Source: Dehalococcoidia bacterium
Lineage (GTDB): Bacteria; Chloroflexota; Dehalococcoidia; Plut-88900
Assembly: GCA_965249275.1 (NCBI GenBank)
Contig: CBDFLQ010000007.1
Span: forward strand, 832,001-896,000
DNA: 64,000 bases
Reading direction: 5' to 3'
In this document: positions 4,656 through 42,410 of the stretch, one piece after another
Position numbering within the stretch: the first letter of the stretch is position 1
How the letters are laid out: each line of letters starts with the position of its first letter
Position numbers and translations under genes: made by a program
The notes under the pieces: model-generated
The model's database searches: none
Seen by the model: the letters and a program-made list of their open reading frames with translations, nothing else
What the model was told of the DNA's origin: nothing

Positions 4656-5030
4656 CTAGGCAAGCTCGACGGTGGCGCCAGCGCCCTCGAGAGTCTTTTT
4701 CACGGTCTCGGCCTCTTCCTTGGCGACGGCCTCACGAACGGCCTTCGGGGCGCTTTCGACCAGCTCTTTGGCCTCGCGCAGGCCGAGGGTGGTGACCTCT
4801 CTGACGGCCTTGATCACGTTGATCTTGTTGGGGCCGATCTCCTTGAGGACCACGTCAAACTCGGTCTTCTCTTCGACCGGAGCGGCCTCGGCTGCTGCGG
4901 GCGCGGCGGCAACGGCAACTGGGGCCGCGGCACTGACACCGAACTCTGCCTCGATGGCCTTAACGAGCTCGGAAAGCTCTAAAACGGTCATGGCCTTGAT
5001 TGATTCGAGGAGTTCTTCCTTGGTTGCCAT
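4656..5030 (-). CDS. rplL: 50S ribosomal protein L7/L12
   Basis: [11 protein letters not shown]...[10 protein letters not shown]...[10 protein letters not shown]...[10 protein letters not shown]. Confidence 0.98.
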
Positions 5031-5051
5031 ATCTAATCTCCTTATGACGAT

Positions 5052-5585
5052 CTAGCTTGAGGTTTCTTCTTGCAATTGGTCAACACGGGCACTGAGGGCC
5101 GTGACGAGGCCCCCTATCTGGGCGCTAAGTACGTACTGAAGGGCAGAAAGGGGAGCGAGCAGTGCGCCTGCGGTCTTGGCTATCAATTCCTGCCTGGGCG
5201 GGAGGGTAGCGAGGATACCGACCTCGTTCGAGGCGAGGGAACGGGCTCCCATGACCGCTCCCTTGACGGCCAGAATACTGCGCTCCTGCCGGATGTGGTC
5301 TATCAGTACCTTGGCGGGCTCTGTAGCCTCGCCGTATCCGAATGCGATGGCAGTGGGCCCTTCGAGAAACTGTACCAATGGTTGGGCGCCGGTCTGCTCG
5401 GCGGCCCGGCGGGCGAGGGTGTTTTTGATAACCCGGTACTCCACGCCAAACTCCCGGAGCTTACGACGCAGGGCCATCATCTCCGGCATAGCCAAGCCCC
5501 GGTAATCGGTGGCGATGGCTATGGTGCACCGACCCAGCAGATCGGCTATCTCCCGGACTTGCTGTTCTTTCTTTTCTGTGGCCAT
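5052..5585 (-). CDS. rplJ: 50S ribosomal protein L10
   Basis: DYRGL, VIKNTLARRA and LEGPTAIAF motifs; lies upstream of rplL. Confidence 0.97.
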   Translation of the reverse strand: MATEKKEQQVREIADLLGRCTIAIATDYRGLAMPEMMALRRKLREFGVEYRVIKNTLARRAAEQTGAQPLVQFLEGPTAIAFGYGEATEPAKVLIDHIRQERSILAVKGAVMGARSLASNEVGILATLPPRQELIAKTAGALLAPLSALQYVLSAQIGGLVTALSARVDQLQEETSS

Positions 5586-5612
5586 TAATTTACCGCCTTC
5601 AGTTTATCTTCT

Positions 5613-5756
5613 CTAAAAATACAAAACCCCCGGGGCGCAGCCCAAGGGATTTTTCAAGCCCGATCCAGTGGAGCGAAAGATCAGGTATTTGGCGAATCAC
5701 CTGGGCAGGCTGAACAATTAAGGCTCCGGGGAGCCGCCCGCCGTCTGCGGCGAACT
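5613..5756 (-). promoter_or_regulatory. L10 leader (r-protein autoregulatory RNA) with a terminator-like hairpin
   Basis: The minus strand reads CCGCAGACGGCGGG...TTAA...CCTGCCCAGG, matching the L10_leader pattern, followed by hairpin CCCTTGGGC..GCCCCGGGGG and a U-rich tract, between rplA and rplJ. Confidence 0.8.
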
Positions 5757-9313: not shown

Positions 9314-9388
9314 TGGAGCCCACAACCGGATTTGAACCGGTGACCCCGTTCTTACCAAGAACGTGCTCTACCACTGAGCTATGTGGGC
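9314..9388 (-). tRNA. tRNA-Thr(GGT)
   Basis: GCCCACATAGCTCAGTGGTAGAGCACGTTCTTGGTAAGAACGGGGTCACCGGTTCAAATCCGGTTGTGGGCTCCA folds as a cloverleaf; CCA is encoded. Confidence 0.97.
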
Positions 9389-9429
9389 CTACTGAATGCT
9401 CCTTTTCACACTATTATAGATTCTTTTGA

Positions 9430-9515
9430 TGGTGGAGGGGGCAGGATTCGAACCTGCGTAGCCTTTCGGCAGCGATTTTACAGACCGCCGGTTTTAACCG
9501 CTCACCCACCCCTCC
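9430..9515 (-). tRNA. tRNA-Tyr(GTA)
   Basis: GGAGGGGTGGGTGAGCGGTTAAAACCGGCGGTCTGTAAAATCGCTGCCGAAAGGCTACGCAGGTTCGAATCCTGCCCCCTCCACCA, with a long variable arm. Confidence 0.96.
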
Positions 9516-9580
9516 GCAATGACGTGCTCCTGTTTATGGCACCTGATGGATTTGTTTGTTGGAGGTTTTTTGACGCGGGT

Positions 9581-9656
9581 TGGAGCCCGAGAGGGGAGTC
9601 GAACCCGCTAACCTGCCGATTACAAATCGGCTGCGCTGCCATTGCGCCACTCGGGC
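9581..9656 (-). tRNA. tRNA-Thr(TGT)
   Basis: GCCCGAGTGGCGCAATGGCAGCGCAGCCGATTTGTAATCGGCAGGTTAGCGGGTTCGACTCCCCTCTCGGGCTCCA. Confidence 0.96.
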
Positions 9657-29250: not shown

Positions 29251-30972
29251 GTGAAGGGGATTAGGTGGGAGAACGGTAAAGCGCGCCTTGTAGAGGGGTG
29301 GAGGCGGTGGGAGGGGAACACGCTGCTACTGCTTTCGCCGGTGATTCTACTGCTGGCGATTTTCTTCGTATGGCCCTTGGTGCAGGTCCTGGAAGCCAGT
29401 TTTGGTGGTCGGGGGCCTTTCACTCTTGAGTTGTACGACAAGGCCATCTTTGGCCAGATAGCCCAGAACTGGTGGGAGATAACCATCGAGCAGACGATAG
29501 TTACCACCGGGTTCTGCCTGATCTTAGGTTACCCATTGGCCTACTACCTGGCATCAAGCACGGGCTGGAGGCGGACGCTGGTCCTGATAGCGGTAGTGGT
29601 GCCATTTCTCACTCACTTCGTGGCGCAGACCTCAGTGTGGAGGGTGATTCTCGGGCGAAGGGGCTGGATAAATGAGTCTCTGACAGGCCTCGGCATCATC
29701 GACGAGCCGCTGGAAATTCTGTTTACCAGCTTAGCGGTCGAAATCAGCATGGTCCAGACCCTGCTCCCGTTCATGGTGTTATGCATCTATGCAGGCATGC
29801 GGGGGATCCCGAGGGCGTTCATGATGGTGGCCCAAACCCTTGGCGCCGGGCCCCTGCGAGCCTTCTTGAGGGTGTACCTACCTCTAAGCATGCCGGGGGT
29901 TTGGGCGGGGATTCTGCTAGTTGCAGTGCTGACCATCGGGTCATTCGCCGCCCCCGACATTTTGGGTAATATCCCTCAGCGAGGGATCGCGTCACATCTA
30001 CGGGGCGGGGGCCAGTTCAATTCAGCGCTGGCGATGGTCACCCTGGCAGGGGTCTTGATACTCTATCTGGCGTTTGTGCGATGGGTCGGCTTCAGGCCGC
30101 TGTACCAAGCCGGGGAGGCATTGACGGGCCTAAAGGGAGAGGAGCAGGGGCGGCCCTCGGGGCGACGATTTCTGCTCGGGGGTGGGGTGGGGTTGATCTG
30201 CGCCTACCTACTTCTGCCGCCCGTGGCGGTGGTATTCCTGTCCTTCAGTGCCTCGTCCTTCATCAGATTCCCGCCTCGGGAGTTTTCTTTTAAGTGGTAC
30301 GGGGAGTACTTCACCTCGGCAGACCCCCTGCTTCATTGGTTCGGTGCCACGGTGAGAAGTGTGGAAATAGCAGTGTTGGTAGTAGTGTTTACACTGGCGT
30401 TGGGAGGCATAGTCTCGTATGCACTCGTGCGGTCTCGGCTGCCGGGGAGGGGGCTGATTAACAGCTTCTTCATCGCGCCATTGATAGTGCCGACAGTCGT
30501 GACCGCAGGGGCGATATTTCACCTGTACTTCTACAGCACGGTGCTCCGGCACCTGCTGGGGACTACACCAGGTATGGTAATACCGCACACGGTACTCGCC
30601 CTTCCCTACGTGATCATCATCCTGACGGCTACGCTTCGGAGCATAGACCCGATTCAAGAGCGGGTTGCTATGAGCCTGGGAGCGAATCGGCTGACGACAC
30701 TGCGTCGAATACTGCTGCCCCAGATATACCCAGGTCTGGCCCTCGCGGGTTTTTTGGCCTTCCTGGTGTCGTTCAACGAAGTGATAGTGGCGCTGATCCT
30801 GAAGACACGGGACTTCCAGACCCTGCCGATGAACATGTGGGCAGGCAGAACCGCCGAGTTTGCCCCCATGATGGCAGCAGTATCTGTACTAGTTCTTATC
30901 GGGGCAGGGATATTGCTGGGCGTGGTCTGGTCCATAAGACGCCGGATGGCAAGCCAGCTCAGCGACCCATAA
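29251..30972 (+). CDS. Fused double ABC permease (PotB/PotC-like)
   Basis: Two binding-protein-dependent permease domains, each with an EAA-like loop (VAQTLGA..LPLSMPG; VAMSLGA..LPQIYPG). Confidence 0.85.
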   Translation: MKGIRWENGKARLVEGWRRWEGNTLLLLSPVILLLAIFFVWPLVQVLEASFGGRGPFTLELYDKAIFGQIAQNWWEITIEQTIVTTGFCLILGYPLAYYLASSTGWRRTLVLIAVVVPFLTHFVAQTSVWRVILGRRGWINESLTGLGIIDEPLEILFTSLAVEISMVQTLLPFMVLCIYAGMRGIPRAFMMVAQTLGAGPLRAFLRVYLPLSMPGVWAGILLVAVLTIGSFAAPDILGNIPQRGIASHLRGGGQFNSALAMVTLAGVLILYLAFVRWVGFRPLYQAGEALTGLKGEEQGRPSGRRFLLGGGVGLICAYLLLPPVAVVFLSFSASSFIRFPPREFSFKWYGEYFTSADPLLHWFGATVRSVEIAVLVVVFTLALGGIVSYALVRSRLPGRGLINSFFIAPLIVPTVVTAGAIFHLYFYSTVLRHLLGTTPGMVIPHTVLALPYVIIILTATLRSIDPIQERVAMSLGANRLTTLRRILLPQIYPGLALAGFLAFLVSFNEVIVALILKTRDFQTLPMNMWAGRTAEFAPMMAAVSVLVLIGAGILLGVVWSIRRRMASQLSDP

Positions 30973-32728
30973 CGTAAGTCTCGCGGCGGGGGTCTGCTCC
31001 TCCCATCAATACTCCGTTTTCGTGGTCAACTACTATTGCGGAGACCGAAGAGGTGTGGGCCTGGGACCACTCGTGTAGGGTTTCGACGTCATGGCCTCTT
31101 CTTTGGAGTTCAGCGCGGGTCTCGGCGGATATCCGACCCTCAACCCGTAGCCTTCCCGGGAGGTAGGTGTGGGGCCAGAAGGAGTTGGGGTAGTTCCAGG
31201 ACGTGACCCTGGGCGCTTCTATGGCCTGCTGTGGCCTCATTCCGAAAACGGCGATATTGAGGAAAGTCTGGATCATGCCCTGGGGCTGGGCGTCGCCGCC
31301 GGGACAGCCGAAAGGCATGAAGAGTTTGCCGTTCTTGAAGGCTATAGCGGGATTGGGTGTGAGGCGGGGACGCTTCCAAGGCCCGAGGCTCGACGGGTTG
31401 TCGGGTTCCAGCCAGCTCTGATAACCCCTACCCGACATCACGAGGCCCAGGCCGGGGACAACGGGGCTTTCGGATACGGGGTCGGAGGGAGTCGCAGAGA
31501 AGGCATTGCCCCATTTGTCGACGACGCACGTGTAACTGGTGTCGGCGGCTGAGGCACCGGCGACGGGAACAGGCTGAGCGCCTGCGGAATTCACGACAAT
31601 CCTATCCCCCTTAGGAGGACTCTGGAATGGCCAGGGGTTGCCGGGTTCGGGCATCCGGCCCGGTGTACGAGACATGTCGATGTCGGAACGGCGGGATCTC
31701 GTATATCCCTTAGACAATATCCCCTCGATGGGTACGTCTATGAAATCGGGGTCTCCGTAGTAGTGGTGGCGGTCTGCGAAGGCCCGGTCCATAGCCTCGG
31801 TGTAGAGATGCAAGTAGTCGGCTGAATTGTGGCCCAGGGCTTCCAGGTCGTCGTCCTCCAGCATCTGGAGCACCTGCCCGACCACCGGGCCCTGGCACCA
31901 GGGGCCACAAGTGTAGATGGTGTAGTCCCGGAAACTTGCGCTCACTGGTGGCTCAACCTTCACGGTGAAGTCGTGGATGTCCTGGTAGGTAATGAGGCCG
32001 TCCTGCTCTTCGCTGAAGCGGGCCATTTCGTGGGCGATGTCTCCCTTGTAGAAATAGTCCCGTGCGGCGCGTAGCGCCTCCGGTCTACCGAGATGAGCAT
32101 TGGCGGACTCGACATCTGCGAGGCGCTGGAAGGTACGACCTAGGTCGGACTGGACAAATATACTGCCAACCGGGGGGACTCGGCCATCGGGCATGAAAAT
32201 CTCTCGGGTGGAGGGCCAGCGGCCAAGGGTGCCGTTGACCGGGTCGGCATCCTCCAGCAAGCCTCCGTAGGTGACGGGGTTCATTGGAAATCCGTCTCGG
32301 GCGAGCTGGAGGGCCGGGGTAACGACTTCCCCGAAGGTCTTGGTCCCATATCGTTCCAGGGCGGTGAGCCAGGCGTCGGGGGCGGCGGGCACGATGCTCT
32401 GGAGGATCCCCTTAGGGATTTCGCCGCCTGCGTGCTCCATGTAGTAGCCGATGTTGGCAGATCGGGGCCAGCGGCCCAGGCCGCTAATGGTGATCACGGA
32501 ATTCGACGCGGCTAGATAGATCATGATGGGCGCTACGCCACCGAAATTGGTGCTTTCCGGCAGGAGAACGTTGATGGCAATGCCAGCGGCCACTCCCGCA
32601 TCAACGGCGTTGCCTCCCTGCTCCAGAATACGGTACCCGGCCTCGGCGGCAAGGTAATGGCCGGCAGCGACCATGTGGGTGGTTCCCATGAAAGTGGGCC
32701 GAAGGCTTTCGATACCGGGATAAGTCAT
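30959..32728 (-). CDS. Gamma-glutamyltransferase family (Ntn hydrolase)
   Basis: GGNAVDAGVA, autocleavage site DTSYTCVVD..GN, PGGDAQPQ, GGADPRR. Confidence 0.92.
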   Translation of the reverse strand: MTYPGIESLRPTFMGTTHMVAAGHYLAAEAGYRILEQGGNAVDAGVAAGIAINVLLPESTNFGGVAPIMIYLAASNSVITISGLGRWPRSANIGYYMEHAGGEIPKGILQSIVPAAPDAWLTALERYGTKTFGEVVTPALQLARDGFPMNPVTYGGLLEDADPVNGTLGRWPSTREIFMPDGRVPPVGSIFVQSDLGRTFQRLADVESANAHLGRPEALRAARDYFYKGDIAHEMARFSEEQDGLITYQDIHDFTVKVEPPVSASFRDYTIYTCGPWCQGPVVGQVLQMLEDDDLEALGHNSADYLHLYTEAMDRAFADRHHYYGDPDFIDVPIEGILSKGYTRSRRSDIDMSRTPGRMPEPGNPWPFQSPPKGDRIVVNSAGAQPVPVAGASAADTSYTCVVDKWGNAFSATPSDPVSESPVVPGLGLVMSGRGYQSWLEPDNPSSLGPWKRPRLTPNPAIAFKNGKLFMPFGCPGGDAQPQGMIQTFLNIAVFGMRPQQAIEAPRVTSWNYPNSFWPHTYLPGRLRVEGRISAETRAELQRRGHDVETLHEWSQAHTSSVSAIVVDHENGVLMGGADPRRETYVMGR

Positions 32729-32759
32729 GGCGGTTCTCCTTTTTCTCGAGGATGAGGGT

Positions 32760-34091
32760 CTAGGACCCGACACCCTCCGATACGGCGCGTATGGCTTCCT
32801 CCATAATGGCAAGAGCCTTGTCTATCTCCGGCTCGCCGATGACTAGGGGAGGAGCGAGGCGGATCACGGGCGTGCCGTGAGTCGTGAACAGTATAAGGCC
32901 CTTTTGGAGGCAGTAGCTGGTGATTTGGTCCATCAGGTCGGGGGCGGGGTGAGCCGAGGATTTGTCAGTGACGATTTCAAGACCCAGTAGTAAACCCACG
33001 CCCCGCACATCCCCAACGATCTCGTATTGGTCACGCAAAGTCTCGAGGCCCGTTCGAAAATAGTCTCCCATAACCTCCGCCCTCTCGACCAGGCCCTCGG
33101 ACTCTATGATCTCCAAGTTGGCCAGGCCGACGCCGCAGAGGAAGGGGTCGCCACTGTGCGAGGTGCTCTGAGCATAACCTCCCTCCTCCAGCTTGCGAGC
33201 GACAGACTCGGAGACGACGGTCGCGCTCAGGGGCACGGCCCCGCCGAGGCTTTTGGAAAGGGTCATGACGTCGGGGACGACGTTGTGGTGCTCGGCGGCA
33301 AACCATTTACCTGTTCGCCCCAGACCGGTGAGGGCCTCGTCCATGATGAGAAGAGCGCCTCTCTCGGTGCAAAAACGACGGAGGGCCTGCACGTACTCTG
33401 AGGGCGGGACGACGATGGGGCCACCGAGGACCGGCTCGATGATCACTGCGGCGGGCTCGCCGGTGGTATTCAGGTCGATCATTTCTACGGAATAGTCGAA
33501 GCAAACCAGAGAGCATCCGTCCTGCCGTGAACAGAAGCGGCAGCGGTAGGAGTTGGGTGTGGGGAGAAATGTGACGCCAGGCAGGCCAGGGCCGTATTCG
33601 GGGTGGCCCCGACGGTAGCCGCGGCCCGTGACGCTCCATGCGGCAAGTGAGAGGCCGTGATAGCTTTCCGATAAAGATATCAGTTCATGCCTTCCTGTGG
33701 CGAAACGGGCGATGCGGATGGCGGTCTCCACGGAGTCGGAGCCCGTGCAGCCGTAAAAGGGCTTTTGCAGGTCCCCCGGAGTAAGTTCAGAGAGGCGTTT
33801 GGATAGGGCAACTTCCTGCGGGGTGGTGAAAGATGAGCCCGTCTGCATTAGGAGTGCCGACTGACGGGTCACGGCTTCCAGGAGTCGGGGGTGGCTGTGG
33901 CCCACGGAAACGCAGAGCTGGCCCGACATCATGTCCAGGTACTCCTTGCCTTCCACGTCCCAGAGGGAGCAGCCCAGGCCCCTTGCGGGGACTATAGGGA
34001 ACTTTTGCCAGGTGTTGAGTGTCCAGCGCTCCCCGGCCTCAATCCATTGCTCGTTGGTTGTCAGATCGAGTCCGTGGGTGCTTCCTACCAT
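32760..34091 (-). CDS. Class III PLP-dependent aminotransferase
   Basis: WDVEGKEYLD, SYHG, DEALTGLGRTG, SKSLGG (PLP lysine). Confidence 0.93.
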   Translation of the reverse strand: MVGSTHGLDLTTNEQWIEAGERWTLNTWQKFPIVPARGLGCSLWDVEGKEYLDMMSGQLCVSVGHSHPRLLEAVTRQSALLMQTGSSFTTPQEVALSKRLSELTPGDLQKPFYGCTGSDSVETAIRIARFATGRHELISLSESYHGLSLAAWSVTGRGYRRGHPEYGPGLPGVTFLPTPNSYRCRFCSRQDGCSLVCFDYSVEMIDLNTTGEPAAVIIEPVLGGPIVVPPSEYVQALRRFCTERGALLIMDEALTGLGRTGKWFAAEHHNVVPDVMTLSKSLGGAVPLSATVVSESVARKLEEGGYAQSTSHSGDPFLCGVGLANLEIIESEGLVERAEVMGDYFRTGLETLRDQYEIVGDVRGVGLLLGLEIVTDKSSAHPAPDLMDQITSYCLQKGLILFTTHGTPVIRLAPPLVIGEPEIDKALAIMEEAIRAVSEGVGS

Positions 34092-35261: not shown

Positions 35262-35606
35262 TCACTCCGTGAAAGTGTCGCGATCCAGGAGCAGGAAGAC
35301 CTCGCCCCACTGAGAAGCATCTTCGAGGGCCCAGTCGCCCGCCGAGTCCTGGGGCCGGAGGCGAATGCCCTCTTCTCCGCCATAGACGAGCAGGGCGGCC
35401 CCTTCACCGGAGTCATCAACCAGAGCGGCGAAGGCGGTTACAGCGCCCTCGGAAGACCAGCCGACTACCTCGTATACGCCTTCAGTTCCGTCGGGCGCGA
35501 AGGCGGCGACTTTCGAGATGGGCCTCGGGTCTCCGATGGTCTGGAAGCTGCGGGTCACGTCGAAAAGGCTATTCTCCGATTCTTCTACTTCTAATACTAG
35601 CAGCAC
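35262..35606 (-). CDS. Hypothetical protein (third gene of the sulfite reductase unit)
   Basis: 114-aa acidic ORF with a GGAG SD, co-oriented and closely spaced. Confidence 0.65.
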   Translation of the reverse strand: MLLVLEVEESENSLFDVTRSFQTIGDPRPISKVAAFAPDGTEGVYEVVGWSSEGAVTAFAALVDDSGEGAALLVYGGEEGIRLRPQDSAGDWALEDASQWGEVFLLLDRDTFTE

Positions 35607-35628: not shown

Positions 35629-35997
35629 TTAGGCCTCTATACTGCGCATGCCTGAACGCTGCATCTGGGCAGTTGCAAGGTACTGTTCGAGTAGGACGCG
35701 GGCTTCGGGCTTGCGGAGGTCCAGGGATGAGATGGCAATGGCCCGGTAGAATACCCCAGCCGGGACTTGAACGGACGTAGAGGAGCCCGACTCAGGCAAT
35801 TCCGCGCCTAGGGCTTCGGCCATGAACTCGGCTTGTAACTCTCCGACTCCCGTTGCGTGGCACTTGGTCACGGCACGGCCGCGGTGCAAGAGGGTTACGC
35901 CGGACTTCGACCGCTTGAGGGTGAGAGGAATGGCAGCGCGCGGTTTTTCGAGGATTTCCTCGGCGTAGTCCTGGGCCCGGGAGCGGCTTATGCCCAT
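35629..35997 (-). CDS. Hypothetical protein immediately downstream of sulfite reductase
   Basis: ORF MGISRSRAQDYAEE...; ATG 35997 lies 7 nt after the reductase stop (alternative start 36030). Confidence 0.65.
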   Translation of the reverse strand: MGISRSRAQDYAEEILEKPRAAIPLTLKRSKSGVTLLHRGRAVTKCHATGVGELQAEFMAEALGAELPESGSSTSVQVPAGVFYRAIAISSLDLRKPEARVLLEQYLATAQMQRSGMRSIEA

Positions 35998-37853: not shown

Positions 37854-37891
37854 AAAAAACGCCCCTTCGATTACACTTAATCGTAGGGGCG
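37854..37891 (-). terminator. Attenuator terminator in the 5' leader of sulfite reductase
   Basis: CGCCCCTACGATTA-AGTG-TAATCGAAGGGGCG-TTTTTT, ending 16 nt before the first reductase ATG. Confidence 0.85.
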
Positions 37892-37923
37892 CAACGCTAT
37901 GCCAAGCTGGATTAGCGCCGGCC

Positions 37924-37974
37924 CTATTGCCGGCACATACAGACGCAAGAATCAAGCCAATATCTGTTATTCAT
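37924..37974 (-). CDS. Putative Cys-rich leader peptide MNNRYWLDSCVCMCRQ
   Basis: A 16-codon ORF between promoter and terminator, with TGC-GTC-TGT-ATG-TGC near the stop. Confidence 0.75.
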   Translation of the reverse strand: MNNRYWLDSCVCMCRQ

Positions 37975-37983
37975 CGGTGCTGA

Positions 37984-38012
37984 AGCTTAGCGTTGTTTAG
38001 GAGTGATGTCAA
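37984..38012 (-). promoter_or_regulatory. Sigma70-type promoter of the leader/sulfite reductase operon
   Basis: TTGACA-17-TAAGCT, ending 9 nt before the leader ATG. Confidence 0.75.
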
Positions 38013-38065: not shown

Positions 38066-39262
38066 CTAGAACGCGACCTCTCGTAACTCGTCCGACTCCG
38101 TAGTGATAAGGTCAGACCCCGTCTCCGTAACTACATGGGTGTCCTCCCACAGCAGGTGCAACTCCTTATCCCCGATGCCTGGCTCCGTGCTTATGACAGT
38201 GCCTACTTCCAGCACCGTATGGTCGGTGGGTGTCACACTGGGAGGCTCCGTGAACTGTATTCCTTGCCCGTGACCCATGCGGCTCCCACCCGTGAGTCTT
38301 TCAGGGTTGTCCGTCTCAACTCCCAAGTCTTTCATAGCTTGCACACCGGCACTGTGAATGTCCGCCGCCTCGACGCCCGGTCGCAGGGCCTCTACCATGC
38401 GGCGGTTCACTTCGAGGAGTTGATTGTAGAGACGTTTCTGCCTATCTGTGGGCGGACCCAGGGAGACCATACGTGGGTAGTCGACGGTATACATCCCGAC
38501 CCGGGCCCCGGTGTCGATGCCCAGTATGACGCCCGGTCTCAGAGGCCTGTCATAGTGAAATGCGTGCTTAGCTCCGGGAAGCTCGGACTGGATGTCGAAC
38601 TGGAAATGGACGAAGGACGTGCCGTCGGCACCTTCATCTAGTACCAGCTTCTGGAACTGGCGCGCCAACTGGCGTTCGGTTACTCCGGGAGTCAAATAGT
38701 CTGTATACAGGCGATGTCGAGCCCTGGCGGTAATGCGAGCCGCCTCACGCATGTATGACACTTCCTCCTCCGACTTGACCATGCGAGTCTTGATGATGAC
38801 GTCCGCGGCGTCAACGAACCGGGCCTCGGGCATCGAGCCGACGATGCTCAGGTAGTCCCCGACCGGCACACCCATCCTCTGCTCCTGACCCAACTCCGCA
38901 CCGATGCGACCAGCGCTCAGTCCCCTGTCCCGCAGAGCCTCTTCAACCAGCTCGTATGGGAACTGGAGGACATCGAAGTAGTCCCGGATGTCGGCGATAT
39001 ATGTGCTCTGCTCGATGTTGTCCCTGCCTTGGGAAACGATTATCGGATCTCCTACGGCGGGCAAAATGAAAGCCGAGGGTCGGGCCAAAGATTCGTTGGG
39101 GCCGATGCTTGGGGCAGCACCCACAAAGTAGTGGAAGTTGTGTTCTCCCGTAATCAGCAGCGCGTCCAAGTCGTTTTGTGCCATCAGCAAGCGGGCTCGG
39201 GCGAGTCGGCGGTCCATCTCTTGTCGGGAGAACATGGGGTAGGTCGGGTTTGACTGTGCCAA
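38066..39262 (-). CDS. M24 family (Xaa-Pro) peptidase-like protein
   Basis: Creatinase-like N-domain and metal ligands D-D-H-E-E (IDTG, VDYPR, GHGQG, TEPG, WEDT). TTG start after AAGGAG. Confidence 0.88.
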   Translation of the reverse strand: MAQSNPTYPMFSRQEMDRRLARARLLMAQNDLDALLITGEHNFHYFVGAAPSIGPNESLARPSAFILPAVGDPIIVSQGRDNIEQSTYIADIRDYFDVLQFPYELVEEALRDRGLSAGRIGAELGQEQRMGVPVGDYLSIVGSMPEARFVDAADVIIKTRMVKSEEEVSYMREAARITARARHRLYTDYLTPGVTERQLARQFQKLVLDEGADGTSFVHFQFDIQSELPGAKHAFHYDRPLRPGVILGIDTGARVGMYTVDYPRMVSLGPPTDRQKRLYNQLLEVNRRMVEALRPGVEAADIHSAGVQAMKDLGVETDNPERLTGGSRMGHGQGIQFTEPPSVTPTDHTVLEVGTVISTEPGIGDKELHLLWEDTHVVTETGSDLITTESDELREVAF

Positions 39263-39711: not shown

Positions 39712-40824
39712 ATGAAAATAGAACGTGTCGAAGTCCGAGTTGTCGCTCCCCAAGTCCAGCGGTTTACCTGGTCCCACGACCTCCCCGACCAGTTCGCCAC
39801 CAACACCCTGGTCCGTATCTTCACTGACGAGGGTGTCGAGGGCGTGGGTGGTGCATGGAACGGCACCTCCTTCGACTATGACCGCTATACCGCAGAAACA
39901 CTGCGCCACCTCTCCCCGACCCTAGTGGGTCGTGACCCGTTAGACCGGGAGGCTCTTCGTCGGGATCTGTGGCCTCGGGTCTTTCCGATACCTCCCCAGG
40001 CCCTCGCCGCAATCGACATCGCGTTGTGGGACCTGGCCGGGAAGGCGGCGGGCATGCCTCTCTACAAGCTAATCGGAGCCACCAGAGACCGAATCCCTTC
40101 CTATGCGAGCACTCCCATGCTGGATGACGTACCCGCATATCTGGACTTCGTGGAGACTCTGCTAGACCAGGGCTTCAACGCCGTCAAATTCCACACATGG
40201 TGTATACCGGAGCAGGATGCAGCCCTGGCCCGCGCAGTCCGGCAGAAGCATCCCAGCAAGGACATAGCGTTCATGTTGGATGCGGAGAACAACTACGACA
40301 GGGAATCCGCTCTCAGGGTTGCTAAAGAGCTGGAAAGCCTGGACTTCACCTGGTTCGAGGCTCCCCTCCCCGACTACGACCTCGAAGGCTACCGAGCTTT
40401 GGCAGAGGCAGTCGAGATGCCGGTGCTCCCATCTGGGAACTGGATTATGGACCTGACAACTTTCGAAAGCGCGGTGAAGTCGGGGTGCTGGCGGTCGTCC
40501 CGGACGGATGCGCTGATTCTCGGGGGCGTAACTCCTCTACACAAGGCCGTCGAGATTAGCGAGTCCGCAGGCATCAATTGCGAGATCATGTCCTGGGGAT
40601 TCAGCCTGAACTCGACCGCCAACCTCCATCTGATGCTCACCACCGACAGCTGTTCCTACTTCGAGCAGACTATGCCATACGAGCCTTACGAGTACGGCAT
40701 GATAGACGTCGTCCGAACCCAAGTGGATGGATACGTCTACGCCCCAGAAAAGCCGGGACTAGGTCTGGATGTTGACTGGGAGGCGATGGAGCACGCCACA
40801 ATCCACAGTTTGACCTTCCCCTAG
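39712..40824 (+). CDS. Mandelate racemase/muconate lactonizing enzyme family (enolase superfamily)
   Basis: AAIDIALWDLAGKAAGMPLYKLIG, MLDAE, WFEAP, PEKPGLG. Confidence 0.9.
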   Translation: MKIERVEVRVVAPQVQRFTWSHDLPDQFATNTLVRIFTDEGVEGVGGAWNGTSFDYDRYTAETLRHLSPTLVGRDPLDREALRRDLWPRVFPIPPQALAAIDIALWDLAGKAAGMPLYKLIGATRDRIPSYASTPMLDDVPAYLDFVETLLDQGFNAVKFHTWCIPEQDAALARAVRQKHPSKDIAFMLDAENNYDRESALRVAKELESLDFTWFEAPLPDYDLEGYRALAEAVEMPVLPSGNWIMDLTTFESAVKSGCWRSSRTDALILGGVTPLHKAVEISESAGINCEIMSWGFSLNSTANLHLMLTTDSCSYFEQTMPYEPYEYGMIDVVRTQVDGYVYAPEKPGLGLDVDWEAMEHATIHSLTFP

Positions 40825-42410
40825 TCGCGCTCGTACTTCCTACCCAACTCTTCCTCCCACCTCAAGTACTCTATCGCCCCCGCGAAGTTGCGCCCAGACC
40901 CGGTAGCCACCAGGTCATCCGGGGGTGTCAACACACCTGCCAGACCTTTTTCCAACGGATGACCCTCCGCAACCCAAGCCCGCGTACCTCCATCCAACGA
41001 CGCCACGCTTTCATACCCCATATCCACCAACGCCAGTCCAGCGAGTATCGATTCACGGCCCTCGGGGCTCACAAGCACTACGGGTGTCGACTTGGAGGGC
41101 ACAATGCTGTCCGCGAGGAGCTCCAGGGAGCCCCGAGGCGCCCATCGGCTGCCCGGCGGGTGTCCTTGCGAGAACTCCGCACTCGTCCCGATAAACAGCG
41201 CTACGGCGGACTCTTTCATCATCCTAGCCACATCTCTCGGGGGCAGTGAGGAGACACGGGTGCGAGCTTCTTCGAAGGTGGCGGGTCCTGCATCGCGGGA
41301 ATCCGATTCAAGCTCCAATCCCGCTTCCTTCCATGCCTTCGTGCCGCCCTCTACCACGTGAACGTTCGGGTATCCCATCTGCCTGAAAAAGGAGCCCGTC
41401 ACCGAGGCCCTAGCTATTCCGTCGCAGCAAAAGACGATCTGCCCTGCCTTCACCCCAACCACGTTGTCGCTCTCCTGGACGGCCTGACCTCCCGGATGCC
41501 ACCAGAATCCCGGAATATGGCCTGCTTCGAATTCATCGCGCGTTCTCACATCCACGAGATAGACGTTCTCGTCACGCCGCTCCGACAACAACCTTTGCAG
41601 CCCGTCGGGCGTCAAATAGTTCACTCCGTCTTCAGTCGCCACTCTTCGGCCGAATGCCTCAGCCCTCCCCAATGCCTCCACCGATGGCGCATTCAGGGTC
41701 ACCCGGCCCGACCCATTCTCCAAGTCAAAACCAGCCAACTGCCACCCCATCGTTCCGTTCCGCAGCCCGTAGATTTGCTTCACGCCCATACGCTGCAAAA
41801 GGCCCGTACCAACTATGCTCCGGGTACGGCCCGCACAATGCACAACCACCGGGGTATCCTCGGTATCCATCAGGTCCCAGATACGCAAGGCGATCTCCCC
41901 ACCGGGAAGGCTGCGGCTGCCCGGAATACAGAAATTGTGGTGTTCCTCCGGGGTCCGGGAGTCGACCATGACGAACTGCTCGCCGCGGGAGATCCAGCCT
42001 TCAAGCTCCTCGGCGGTTATCTCCGGCACCTGCTGTTCAACCTGCAACCGTTCTCCGAAGTCTTTGCTCAGAACGTTGACACCCCACTCGGACCCGTAAC
42101 CGAGGGATGTCCAGCGGTTGATCCCACCCTCCAACACCGACCCATTCTCGTATCTCATGCGTTCCAGCGTGCCAAGGGCCAACGCTGCTCTCCTACCGTC
42201 GTCATCGCAGACTACAATCCTAGTCGCCCTATTGGGTACAAGGCGAGGGAGCCGGTACTCAATGAGCCGTCGTGGAAGTGGGCAGGCGCCGGGGATGTGG
42301 GCGAGGTTATATTCTCCGTGCTCACGCACGTCCAACAGGGCGATGGGAGCGCCTTGGTTCAGCAGGGATGCAAGCTCTTCAGAGGCAGTGATTTTAGGCA
42401 TCTCTGGCAT
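40821..42410 (-). CDS. Multi-domain rhodanese (four rhodanese repeats) sulfurtransferase
   Basis: Repeated DVR...HIPG...(L)xGGxxxW units; active-site-like VHCAGRTRS in repeat 2. Confidence 0.9.
   Translation of the reverse strand: MPEMPKITASEELASLLNQGAPIALLDVREHGEYNLAHIPGACPLPRRLIEYRLPRLVPNRATRIVVCDDDGRRAALALGTLERMRYENGSVLEGGINRWTSLGYGSEWGVNVLSKDFGERLQVEQQVPEITAEELEGWISRGEQFVMVDSRTPEEHHNFCIPGSRSLPGGEIALRIWDLMDTEDTPVVVHCAGRTRSIVGTGLLQRMGVKQIYGLRNGTMGWQLAGFDLENGSGRVTLNAPSVEALGRAEAFGRRVATEDGVNYLTPDGLQRLLSERRDENVYLVDVRTRDEFEAGHIPGFWWHPGGQAVQESDNVVGVKAGQIVFCCDGIARASVTGSFFRQMGYPNVHVVEGGTKAWKEAGLELESDSRDAGPATFEEARTRVSSLPPRDVARMMKESAVALFIGTSAEFSQGHPPGSRWAPRGSLELLADSIVPSKSTPVVLVSPEGRESILAGLALVDMGYESVASLDGGTRAWVAEGHPLEKGLAGVLTPPDDLVATGSGRNFAGAIEYLRWEEELGRKYERD

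Follow-up and report, generated by a model that had tools for sequence, protein, structure and literature searches.

A candidate cysteine-sensing leader-peptide attenuator upstream of a NirA-like reductase in Dehalococcoidia

The 64 kb stretch of a Dehalococcoidia bacterium genome analysed here (contig CBDFLQ010000007.1, positions 832,001 to 896,000), which we refer to as the window, contains a siroheme-type reductase gene preceded by a leader of around 120 nucleotides (nt) with the features of a cysteine-sensing attenuator. All elements of the leader are read on the minus strand, and most of its length is taken up by a short open reading frame (ORF) and a putative intrinsic terminator (Table 1). 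The initial annotation had placed here a TTGACA-17-TAAGCT promoter and, 9 nt further on, the ATG of a 16 amino acid (aa) ORF with three cysteine (Cys) codons, and each of these is found exactly where it was described. The -10 hexamer agrees with TATAAT at 3 of 6 positions and the leader ORF lacks a Shine-Dalgarno sequence. On the basis of this lack and of the 9 nt spacing from the -10 box, the mRNA is predicted to begin at the leader ATG, making the ORF leaderless or near-leaderless. Its Cys codons follow the pattern C-V-C-M-C, with three among codons 10-14 of 16 and none consecutive. When both strands of the window were searched for promoter-anchored short ORFs (4-40 aa, starting 6-11 nt after a good -35/-10 pair) the leader ORF was the only one returned. 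Other CxCxC clusters in the window were rejected as leaders, being located in off-frames of coding regions. A generic promoter and terminator scanner listed neither the leader promoter nor the leader terminator, both of which were found by direct reading and custom scripts; the interrupted stem of the hairpin is one possible cause of the terminator having been missed.

Downstream of the Cys codons the RNA is predicted to form three alternative helices, which are mutually exclusive. The initial annotation had proposed these together with a terminator and its U6 tract, and all were recovered in place. Helix 1:2 has the core GCCGGC/GCCGGC (37934-37929 with 37922-37917), extends to 8 base pairs (37936-37929 with 37922-37915) and carries the leader stop codon within its loop. 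Helix 2:3, the antiterminator, pairs 37924-37913 with 37899-37887 over 12 base pairs with one bulge. Predicted energies for helices 1:2, 2:3 and 3:4 (the terminator) are -16.9, -21.7 and -21.9 kcal/mol respectively. The leader as a whole folds at -50.1 kcal/mol (z = -2.97), with none of 200 shuffled sequences folding as well. Folding of the growing transcript gives helix 1:2 first, helix 2:3 as the minimum free energy structure at 95-113 nt, and helices 1:2 plus 3:4 as the minimum free energy structure at full length. The end of the hairpin is separated by 39 nt from the reductase start codon and lies clear of the ribosome-binding site. A search of the region against Rfam 15 gave no gathering-level match to any family, and at E values up to 10 the only matches were Srn266, Spot_42 and KCNQ1OT1, all at chance level and far below their cut-offs.

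Table 1 Features of the reductase locus and its leader in the window
Feature	Coordinates	Strand	Details
-35 box TTGACA	38007..38012	-	Direct reading; same hexamer in the same relative place in most leader-bearing loci
-10 box TAAGCT (TAnnnT type)	37984..37989	-	17 nt past the -35 box and 9 nt short of the ATG
Leader ORF, 16 codons plus TAG	37924..37974	-	MNNRYWLDSCVCMCRQ followed by stop; ATG at 37974, TAG at 37926-37924
Putative regulatory codons Cys10, Cys12, Cys14	37933..37947	-	TGC 37947-45, TGT 37941-39, TGC 37935-33
Segment 1 (GUGCCGGC)	37929..37936	-	5' arm of helix 1:2, within codons 13-16; hairpin -16.9 kcal/mol
Segment 2	37913..37926	-	Begins at the stop codon; pairs with segment 1 (37922-37915) or segment 3 (37924-37913)
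Segment 3	37884..37899	-	Antiterminator 3' strand (37899-37887); overlaps the terminator 5' arm
Intrinsic terminator (putative)	37854..37892	-	Interrupted stem 37892-37859 (-21.9 kcal/mol), U6 at 37859-37854
Siroheme-type NIR_SIR reductase (NirA/ferredoxin sulfite-nitrite reductase family), 604 aa	36005..37819	-	NIR_SIR domains, homologue alignment
Conserved small ORF, no known family	35629..35997	-	Directly 3' of the reductase

The reductase was aligned with 28 of the 120 homologues listed, and a search of species-representative genomes with this alignment gave 80 loci, 63 of them from Chloroflexota (mostly metagenome-assembled genomes of Dehalococcoidia/SAR202) and 17 from elsewhere (Actinomycetota, Nitrospinota, Binatia and one oddly labelled genome). 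Sufficient flank was available for 78, comprising 62 Chloroflexota loci and 16 from other phyla. Looking 300 nt upstream of the reductase, we found a short ORF containing the motif C.?C at 35 of the 78 loci, compared with 7.2 ± 2.5 (maximum 14) over 100 rounds of dinucleotide shuffling and 7 on the reverse complement. The enrichment was stronger for ORFs with a triple Cys, which were present in 17 loci, against 0.4 (maximum 3) in shuffles and none on the reverse complement. Other 300 nt stretches from the same loci carried a C.?C ORF in 7.4% and a triple-Cys ORF in 0.7% of cases. In addition we used a scan blind to Cys, which looks for a promoter and then a start codon within 5-15 nt opening an ORF of at most 45 aa. 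Of the 78 loci, 37 yielded a short ORF in this way; 35 of these ORFs have at least one Cys codon and 28 at least two, and 32 open 8-10 nt past the -10 box.

Overall the element is present in about 37 of the 62 Chloroflexota loci, a count that includes L003 and four leaders with no detectable promoter, and in none of the 16 loci scanned from other phyla, Thermoleophilia among them. The upstream neighbours of the leader come from many unrelated families and often lie on the opposite strand; the element therefore travels with the reductase and is not a neighbour's terminator. A covariance model (R1) of helices 1:2 and 3:4, built from 24 leaders, matched the window once, at the leader, and among the loci matched 31 where expected, including 8 outside the seed. 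The initial annotation had proposed a comparison of the regions upstream of orthologous reductases in Dehalococcoidia/SAR202, and had named a lack of conservation of the short ORF or its Cys codons as the observation that would speak against it; the comparison instead returned conservation (37 of 78 loci), extending to the ORF, its in-frame Cys codons, the promoter spacing, the terminator and the alternative helices, with compensatory changes present.

Several observations suggest that the leader ORF is read. Across a set of 37 leaders, TGY codons make up 105 of 609 codons in frame compared with 24 of 572 and 2 of 572 in the other two frames, a contrast that is somewhat inflated by the set having been chosen partly for Cys. 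Around 17% of codons in these leaders are Cys (62 TGT, 43 TGC), mostly located 3-7 residues before the stop. The modal length is 16 codons (15 of 37), while the peptides range from 11 to 25 aa with Cys as the sole shared motif. Within the group formed by the window, L001 and L002 there are 4 synonymous and 23 non-synonymous differences, with the Cys codons, frame and length fixed, and other multi-Cys groups show the same drift (0 vs 24 and 4 vs 15 synonymous vs non-synonymous). Such drift everywhere except at the Cys codons is the signature of a leader peptide of which only the regulatory codons matter. The clustering of Cys and methionine (Met) codons before the stop had been pointed out in the initial annotation; the Cys codons are conserved in relatives, but the Met codon is not, being ATC in L002. 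A dual Cys and Met sensor was rejected on the same ground, as this ATG to ATC change means that the Met codon is not kept even in the closest relatives. Conservation is also seen at the nucleotide level. In an alignment of 24 leaders (A2) the TGT codon, Cys12 in the window, is invariant, the stretches CTGCnnCTGTA, TAGGGG and GCGCCCC are conserved, and the G-rich stretch after the stop is near-invariant. Some relatives carry runs of Cys, with CCCC in L009 and L041 and CCC in L004.

The position of the terminator relative to the ORF is also constrained. The distance from stop codon to terminator has a median of 34 nt (interquartile range 30-36) in the 37 leaders, and in 30 of them the hairpin has a U-rich tail, with 5 or more T in 8 positions. 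The hairpin and the gene are separated by anything from 22 to 184 nt in relatives. The register of helix 1:2 is not constant across subfamilies (column sums 84, 82, 81 and others), which leaves any one global alignment ill-suited to testing helices 1:2 and 2:3; we therefore used an alignment-free partner-swap test for covariation and inspected close relatives by hand. For each segment of the 37 leaders, the test compares the duplex energy with the partner from its own locus and with partners from other loci (5000 permutations). Cognate partners paired better in all three helices: -14.8 vs -12.5 kcal/mol for helix 1:2 (0 of 5000 permutations as low), -14.7 vs -12.8 kcal/mol for helix 2:3 (3 of 5000) and -21.5 vs -14.3 kcal/mol for helix 3:4 (0 of 5000). 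For the controls, pairings 1:3, 1:4 and 2:4, no cognate preference was seen (1122, 3345 and 4361 of 5000). Individual compensatory changes can be seen between the window and L002, where helix 1:2 has a C-G to U-A exchange through a synonymous TGC to TGT change in Cys14, helix 2:3 has a C-G to U-A exchange, and helix 3:4 has two compensatory pairs (U-A to G-C and A-U to G-C).

Alignment-based measures pointed in the same direction. On a model-fitted alignment (A5) 77% of cells were paired, compared with 63.7% in shuffles (0 of 500), and the covariation score was 0.348, compared with 0.154 in shuffles (0 of 500) and 0.04-0.12 with slid partners. For helix 1:2 in A5, 60.5% of cells were paired, in a register varying by subfamily, and 6 of 7 pairs change on both sides. 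RNAalifold on a MAFFT alignment recovered the terminator only in part; A5 and R1 gave better terminator columns without mending the helix 1:2 register. We did not use A5 for helix 2:3, as only an invariant GGG/CCC core aligns across subfamilies.

Taken together, we consider that the element is most likely a kinetic, ribosome-mediated leader-peptide transcription attenuator that senses charged tRNA-Cys, and that it very probably raises expression of the reductase when cysteine is short. This is the trp/his-type arrangement put forward in the initial annotation, which gains in silico support from the conservation of the element, its in-frame Cys codons and its covarying helices. Four parts of this reading are inferred, namely the transcription start site, leaderless translation, ribosome stalling and the response to cysteine. 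Under the proposed mechanism transcription would start at or within a few bases of the leader ATG and the 16 codons would be translated without a Shine-Dalgarno sequence. With ample Cys-tRNA the ribosome would proceed to the UAG and sit over segment 1 together with the 5' portion of segment 2, leaving segment 3 free to pair with segment 4, and RNA polymerase would terminate at the U6 before the reductase. When Cys-tRNA is scarce the ribosome would stall with Cys10 or Cys12 in the A site, such that segment 1 is covered or melted and segment 2 is free. Segment 2 would then pair with segment 3 as the latter emerges, and the terminator would be pre-empted because helix 2:3 is nearly as stable as the terminator and forms first, allowing transcription of the reductase and probably of the small ORF that follows it. 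With a ribosome reach of around 12 nt, a ribosome with its A site on Cys10 or Cys12 is expected to cover segment 1 and not segment 2, and one on the stop codon to cover the 5' half of segment 2.

A number of observations weigh against this interpretation, beginning with the modelling of ribosome position. Folding under ribosome-footprint constraints, a check proposed in the initial annotation, had a mixed outcome. With the full terminator present and a ribosome mask applied, the equilibrium fold, in the window as in most relatives, is dominated by the terminator wherever the ribosome is placed; no switch is seen at equilibrium, as would be anticipated with helix 3:4 no less stable than helix 2:3, and the case for switching therefore rests on a kinetic argument. 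In a replacement model transcripts were cut before segment 4, with 33 leaders kept and four with a displaced stop dropped. Here the mean pairing of segment 3 was 0.53 with the A site on Cys, 0.37 on the stop and 0.43 with no ribosome, and 23 of the 33 leaders had segment 3 more paired on Cys than on the stop. L009, L037 and L002 show this clearly, but in aggregate the effect is modest, and in the window itself, where it is weak, the cut transcript adopts helix 2:3 even without a ribosome, with a profile that is nearly flat until Cys14 and the helix lost only from that codon onward.

Other points on the same side concern the statistics, the leaders and their distribution. The loci are phylogenetically related, meaning that the p-values and permutation counts given above overstate independence, and A5 was fitted to the same structure whose pairs were counted on it. 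The window leader has only three Cys codons and these are non-consecutive, while a subfamily of four loci (L024:2806-2853, L028, L037 and L043) has a single Cys codon. In two relatives, L004:2822-2943 (MDYSRRQDCACCCWP) and L005:2821-2939, a hairpin of -27 to -37 kcal/mol is found without a U tract; it either represents another output, such as Rho-dependent termination or a roadblock, or is a decayed terminator. Around 25 of the 62 scanned Chloroflexota loci lack the element despite intergenic gaps of 100-470 nt. Finally leaderless genes are predicted to be rare in Chloroflexi, with one survey giving them in 4 of 12 genomes and for around 4.7% of genes (PMC3160421).

We weighed the attenuator against four other explanations, of which the closest accepts that the leader senses cysteine and differs in the output, which would be either translational attenuation, as at Ms5788A of Mycobacterium smegmatis, or Rho-dependent polarity. 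In the mycobacterial system a stalled ribosome is described as unmasking the Shine-Dalgarno sequence of the next gene (10.1101/834739), a comparative study reports actinobacterial Cys leaders without terminators (PMC1262725), and the very strong hairpins of L004 and L005 that lack a U tract would fit such an output. However, the window hairpin with its U6 leaves the reductase's ribosome-binding site uncovered, most of the 37 leaders have the T-rich tail described above, and the wide range of spacings between hairpin and gene is ill-suited to masking of a Shine-Dalgarno sequence, making a non-terminator output improbable. An RNA-only switch, with the terminator governed by a riboswitch or protein-binding leader and the short ORF a bystander, would account for the nucleotide-level conservation of the Cys region in A2 and for the conserved alternative helices, which resemble a riboswitch expression platform. 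It does not account for the enrichment of TGY in the ORF frame only, for the constant distance of the start codon from the -10 box together with a kept ORF length and a drifting N-terminal sequence, or for the excess of synonymous over non-synonymous changes in the single-Cys subfamily (30 vs 9), which indicates that the frame is read. With no Rfam family matched even at E values up to 10 and a leader too short to leave room for an aptamer, we consider an RNA-only switch very improbable.

That same excess of synonymous changes, in a subfamily whose peptide begins MRFEDDLFHLC, is the argument for a functional Cys-rich micropeptide, for example a metal- or redox-active one, standing beside a plain constitutive or partial terminator. 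Against this, everything but the Cys codons drifts in the window group and in the other multi-Cys groups, and the peptides share no motif beyond Cys. A free-standing peptide gene would also need neither a stop codon inside the loop of helix 1:2 nor a segment 2 that co-varies with both of its partners, and a micropeptide is in our view a highly doubtful explanation. Lastly, the ORF could be a chance occurrence beside the terminator of the upstream gene, as an M24 peptidase gene on the same strand ends at 38066. The promoter lies between this gene and the hairpin, however, the same leader is found before the reductase at loci whose upstream gene belongs to a different family and is often on the opposite strand, and neither the shuffles nor the sole occurrence of a promoter-anchored short ORF in the window are readily reconciled with chance, which is hardly credible as an origin of the leader.

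The predicted attenuator shares its architecture with the classical trp, his, leu, thr and pheA-type systems, having a leader ORF with the sensed codons near its end, a stop codon beside segment 2, helices 1:2, 2:3 and 3:4, a terminator with a U tract, and a probably biosynthetic gene under control. It differs in the residue that it would sense, cysteine, in having Cys codons interleaved as C-x-C-x-C and not in a run, and in a leader ORF that has no Shine-Dalgarno sequence, starts 9 nt after the -10 box and is predicted to be leaderless. The classical systems occur in Proteobacteria and in some Actinobacteria and Firmicutes, whereas the host here belongs to the Chloroflexota. A 2010 survey describes leader peptides as then known only in Proteobacteria and Actinobacteria and adds Firmicutes (PMC2965389). 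Other systems serve the same purpose of raising sulfur assimilation when cysteine is short, including CysB, CymR, T-box and S-box/S-adenosylmethionine (SAM) riboswitches, but do so through protein, tRNA or ligand binding. No T-box or SAM riboswitch turned up when the region was screened with Rfam, a screen of RNA elements that did not extend to protein regulators.

The closest parallel in function is the mycobacterial 'Cys ribulon', leaderless polycysteine short ORFs located before cysteine genes (Canestrari et al., 10.1101/834739). These are unannotated short ORFs with C-terminal Cys codons before cysteine or sulfur-assimilation genes, at which stalling on Cys relieves attenuation, and the window element is predicted to be alike in these respects. 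They are found at several loci, and likewise one locus in our set (L023) has two copies. The mycobacterial definition calls for at least two consecutive Cys codons, whereas those of the window leader are all separated. Ms5788A, the one case dissected in that text, acts translationally through a duplex that masks the Shine-Dalgarno sequence of the next gene, with the mechanism of the others left open by its authors, while the window has a hairpin and U tract well clear of the next start codon and no such masking.

The closest parallel in predicted mechanism is uORFC-8-2, located before cysS in Rhodobacterales and predicted to be a ribosome-mediated attenuator with Cys codons UGC/UGU and a terminator stem followed by a U run (Brewer et al. 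2021, PMC8632094). This controls a Cys-tRNA synthetase in alpha-proteobacteria, whereas the window element precedes a probable assimilation enzyme, and its two Cys codons are tandem, at positions 14-15 and inside the first stem, compared with positions 10, 12 and 14 in the window. These differences set the two apart by description and not by comparison of sequence models. The initial annotation had stated that no classical Cys attenuator was known in Chloroflexota, and we too found none in the literature for this phylum, although the Rhodobacterales prediction means that the terminator-type principle has a precedent. More broadly, the full-text literature, with most subscription journals outside its coverage, gave no Cys leader in Chloroflexota/SAR202 or before a sulfite reductase. 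The element has the look of a family not described before, in a phylum new to such leaders, its novelty being in phylum, gene and family and not in principle.

Among the relatives a number of leaders depart from the common form. A second Cys leader is found in L023 (4731-4925), between the stop of the reductase (4743) and a 3'-phosphoadenosine-5'-phosphosulfate (PAPS) reductase (cysH-like) gene (4945-5670). Its ORF (4731-4856) has five Cys codons (...GTCSCMCSCCF...), followed by a hairpin and UUUUAUUUU, and was matched by R1 with an E value of 0.017. The ATG of this ORF overlaps the reductase stop, which suggests translational coupling without a promoter of its own. In the single-Cys subfamily the peptide MRF[E/P]DDLFHLC[T/M]... 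is conserved at the amino-acid level. Pairwise comparison of its codons 1-12 gives 33 identical, 30 synonymous and 9 non-synonymous positions, including changes from AGA/AGG to CGT for arginine. This peptide could be an arrest-type nascent sequence, either sensitising the ribosome to one Cys codon or sensing something beyond tRNA charging. A Dehalococcoidia-wide 'Cys ribulon', independent of the mycobacterial one and with the single-Cys leaders as a second mechanistic class, is conceivable but on the present evidence rather unlikely.

In L014, L021, L026 and the second leader of L023 the stop codon is displaced downstream and the ORF runs through segment 2 (e.g. ...CACIRGHLGAGADAG), with the Cys codons and helices kept. 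In this geometry a terminating ribosome would be predicted to melt the antiterminator instead of parking on it. At L012:2880-2900 a four-codon ORF (M-A-C-C-stop) lies within the predicted promoter spacer with a hairpin further on, and may be a decayed leader. Elsewhere a divergent gene encoding a Rex-like redox-sensing repressor (Put_DNA-bind_N and CoA_binding domains) is present on the minus strand of L008:1935-2570, L010:1854-2552 and L011:1903-2532, and a further layer of regulation could reside in the intergenic region it shares.

The longest ORF of the reductase in the window opens at ATG 37837; however we place the start codon at ATG 37819, with the first ATG probably unused, because the homologue consensus begins at M7 (MTT...) and L001 and L002 have no earlier ATG. 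The best NCBIfam matches of the protein are the NirA family and ferredoxin-nitrite reductase, both below their cut-offs, and its nearest solved structures are plant nitrite reductases and Mycobacterium tuberculosis NirA, the last of these being a sulfite reductase. On homology alone the substrate could be either sulfite or nitrite. The gene following the reductase is a homologue of uroporphyrinogen-III synthase (HemD) in L051, L059 and L074, and these neighbours, together with the cysH-like gene of L023 that has a Cys leader of its own, would favour sulfite reduction for cysteine synthesis.

The small ORF that follows the reductase in the window is probably co-transcribed with it as an operon partner. 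Homologues of around 122-133 aa were found by tblastn directly after the reductase and on the same strand in L001, L002, L028, L037 and L043, a few hundred to around 1,000 nt further downstream in L004, L005 and L003, and around 2.6 kb away in L033. The small ORF had no match in Pfam (E values up to 10), NCBIfam or the protein Atlas. The next ORF (35262-35606, minus strand, 114 aa) is conserved in L001 and L002 only. Thiol and sulfur genes near the reductase include a protein with four rhodanese domains (40821-42410) and a gamma-glutamyltranspeptidase (30959-32812), both on the minus strand, while sat, cysH and cysK are not present in the window. Further away, Rfam identified a ribosomal protein L10 leader before the L10 gene (5612-5768, minus strand; 44.1 bits, just at the cut-off) and three tRNA genes beside tuf (9317-9656, minus strand), which belong to an ordinary ribosomal gene cluster (nusG, L11, L1, L10).

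In SAR202 and related Dehalococcoidia, marine bacteria that are abundant and for the most part uncultured, hardly any regulation is known, and the leader described here offers a testable regulatory element for their sulfur assimilation. It would extend leader-peptide attenuation to another phylum and would combine two features that are usually separate, the promoter-abutting and probably leaderless Cys ORF of mycobacteria and the full terminator/antiterminator of the enteric trp and his operons. Regulation by cysteine would also provide independent evidence that this NirA-like reductase serves cysteine synthesis, acting on sulfite, and not nitrite reduction, and the covariance model may be used for charting the cysteine regulon in these genomes.

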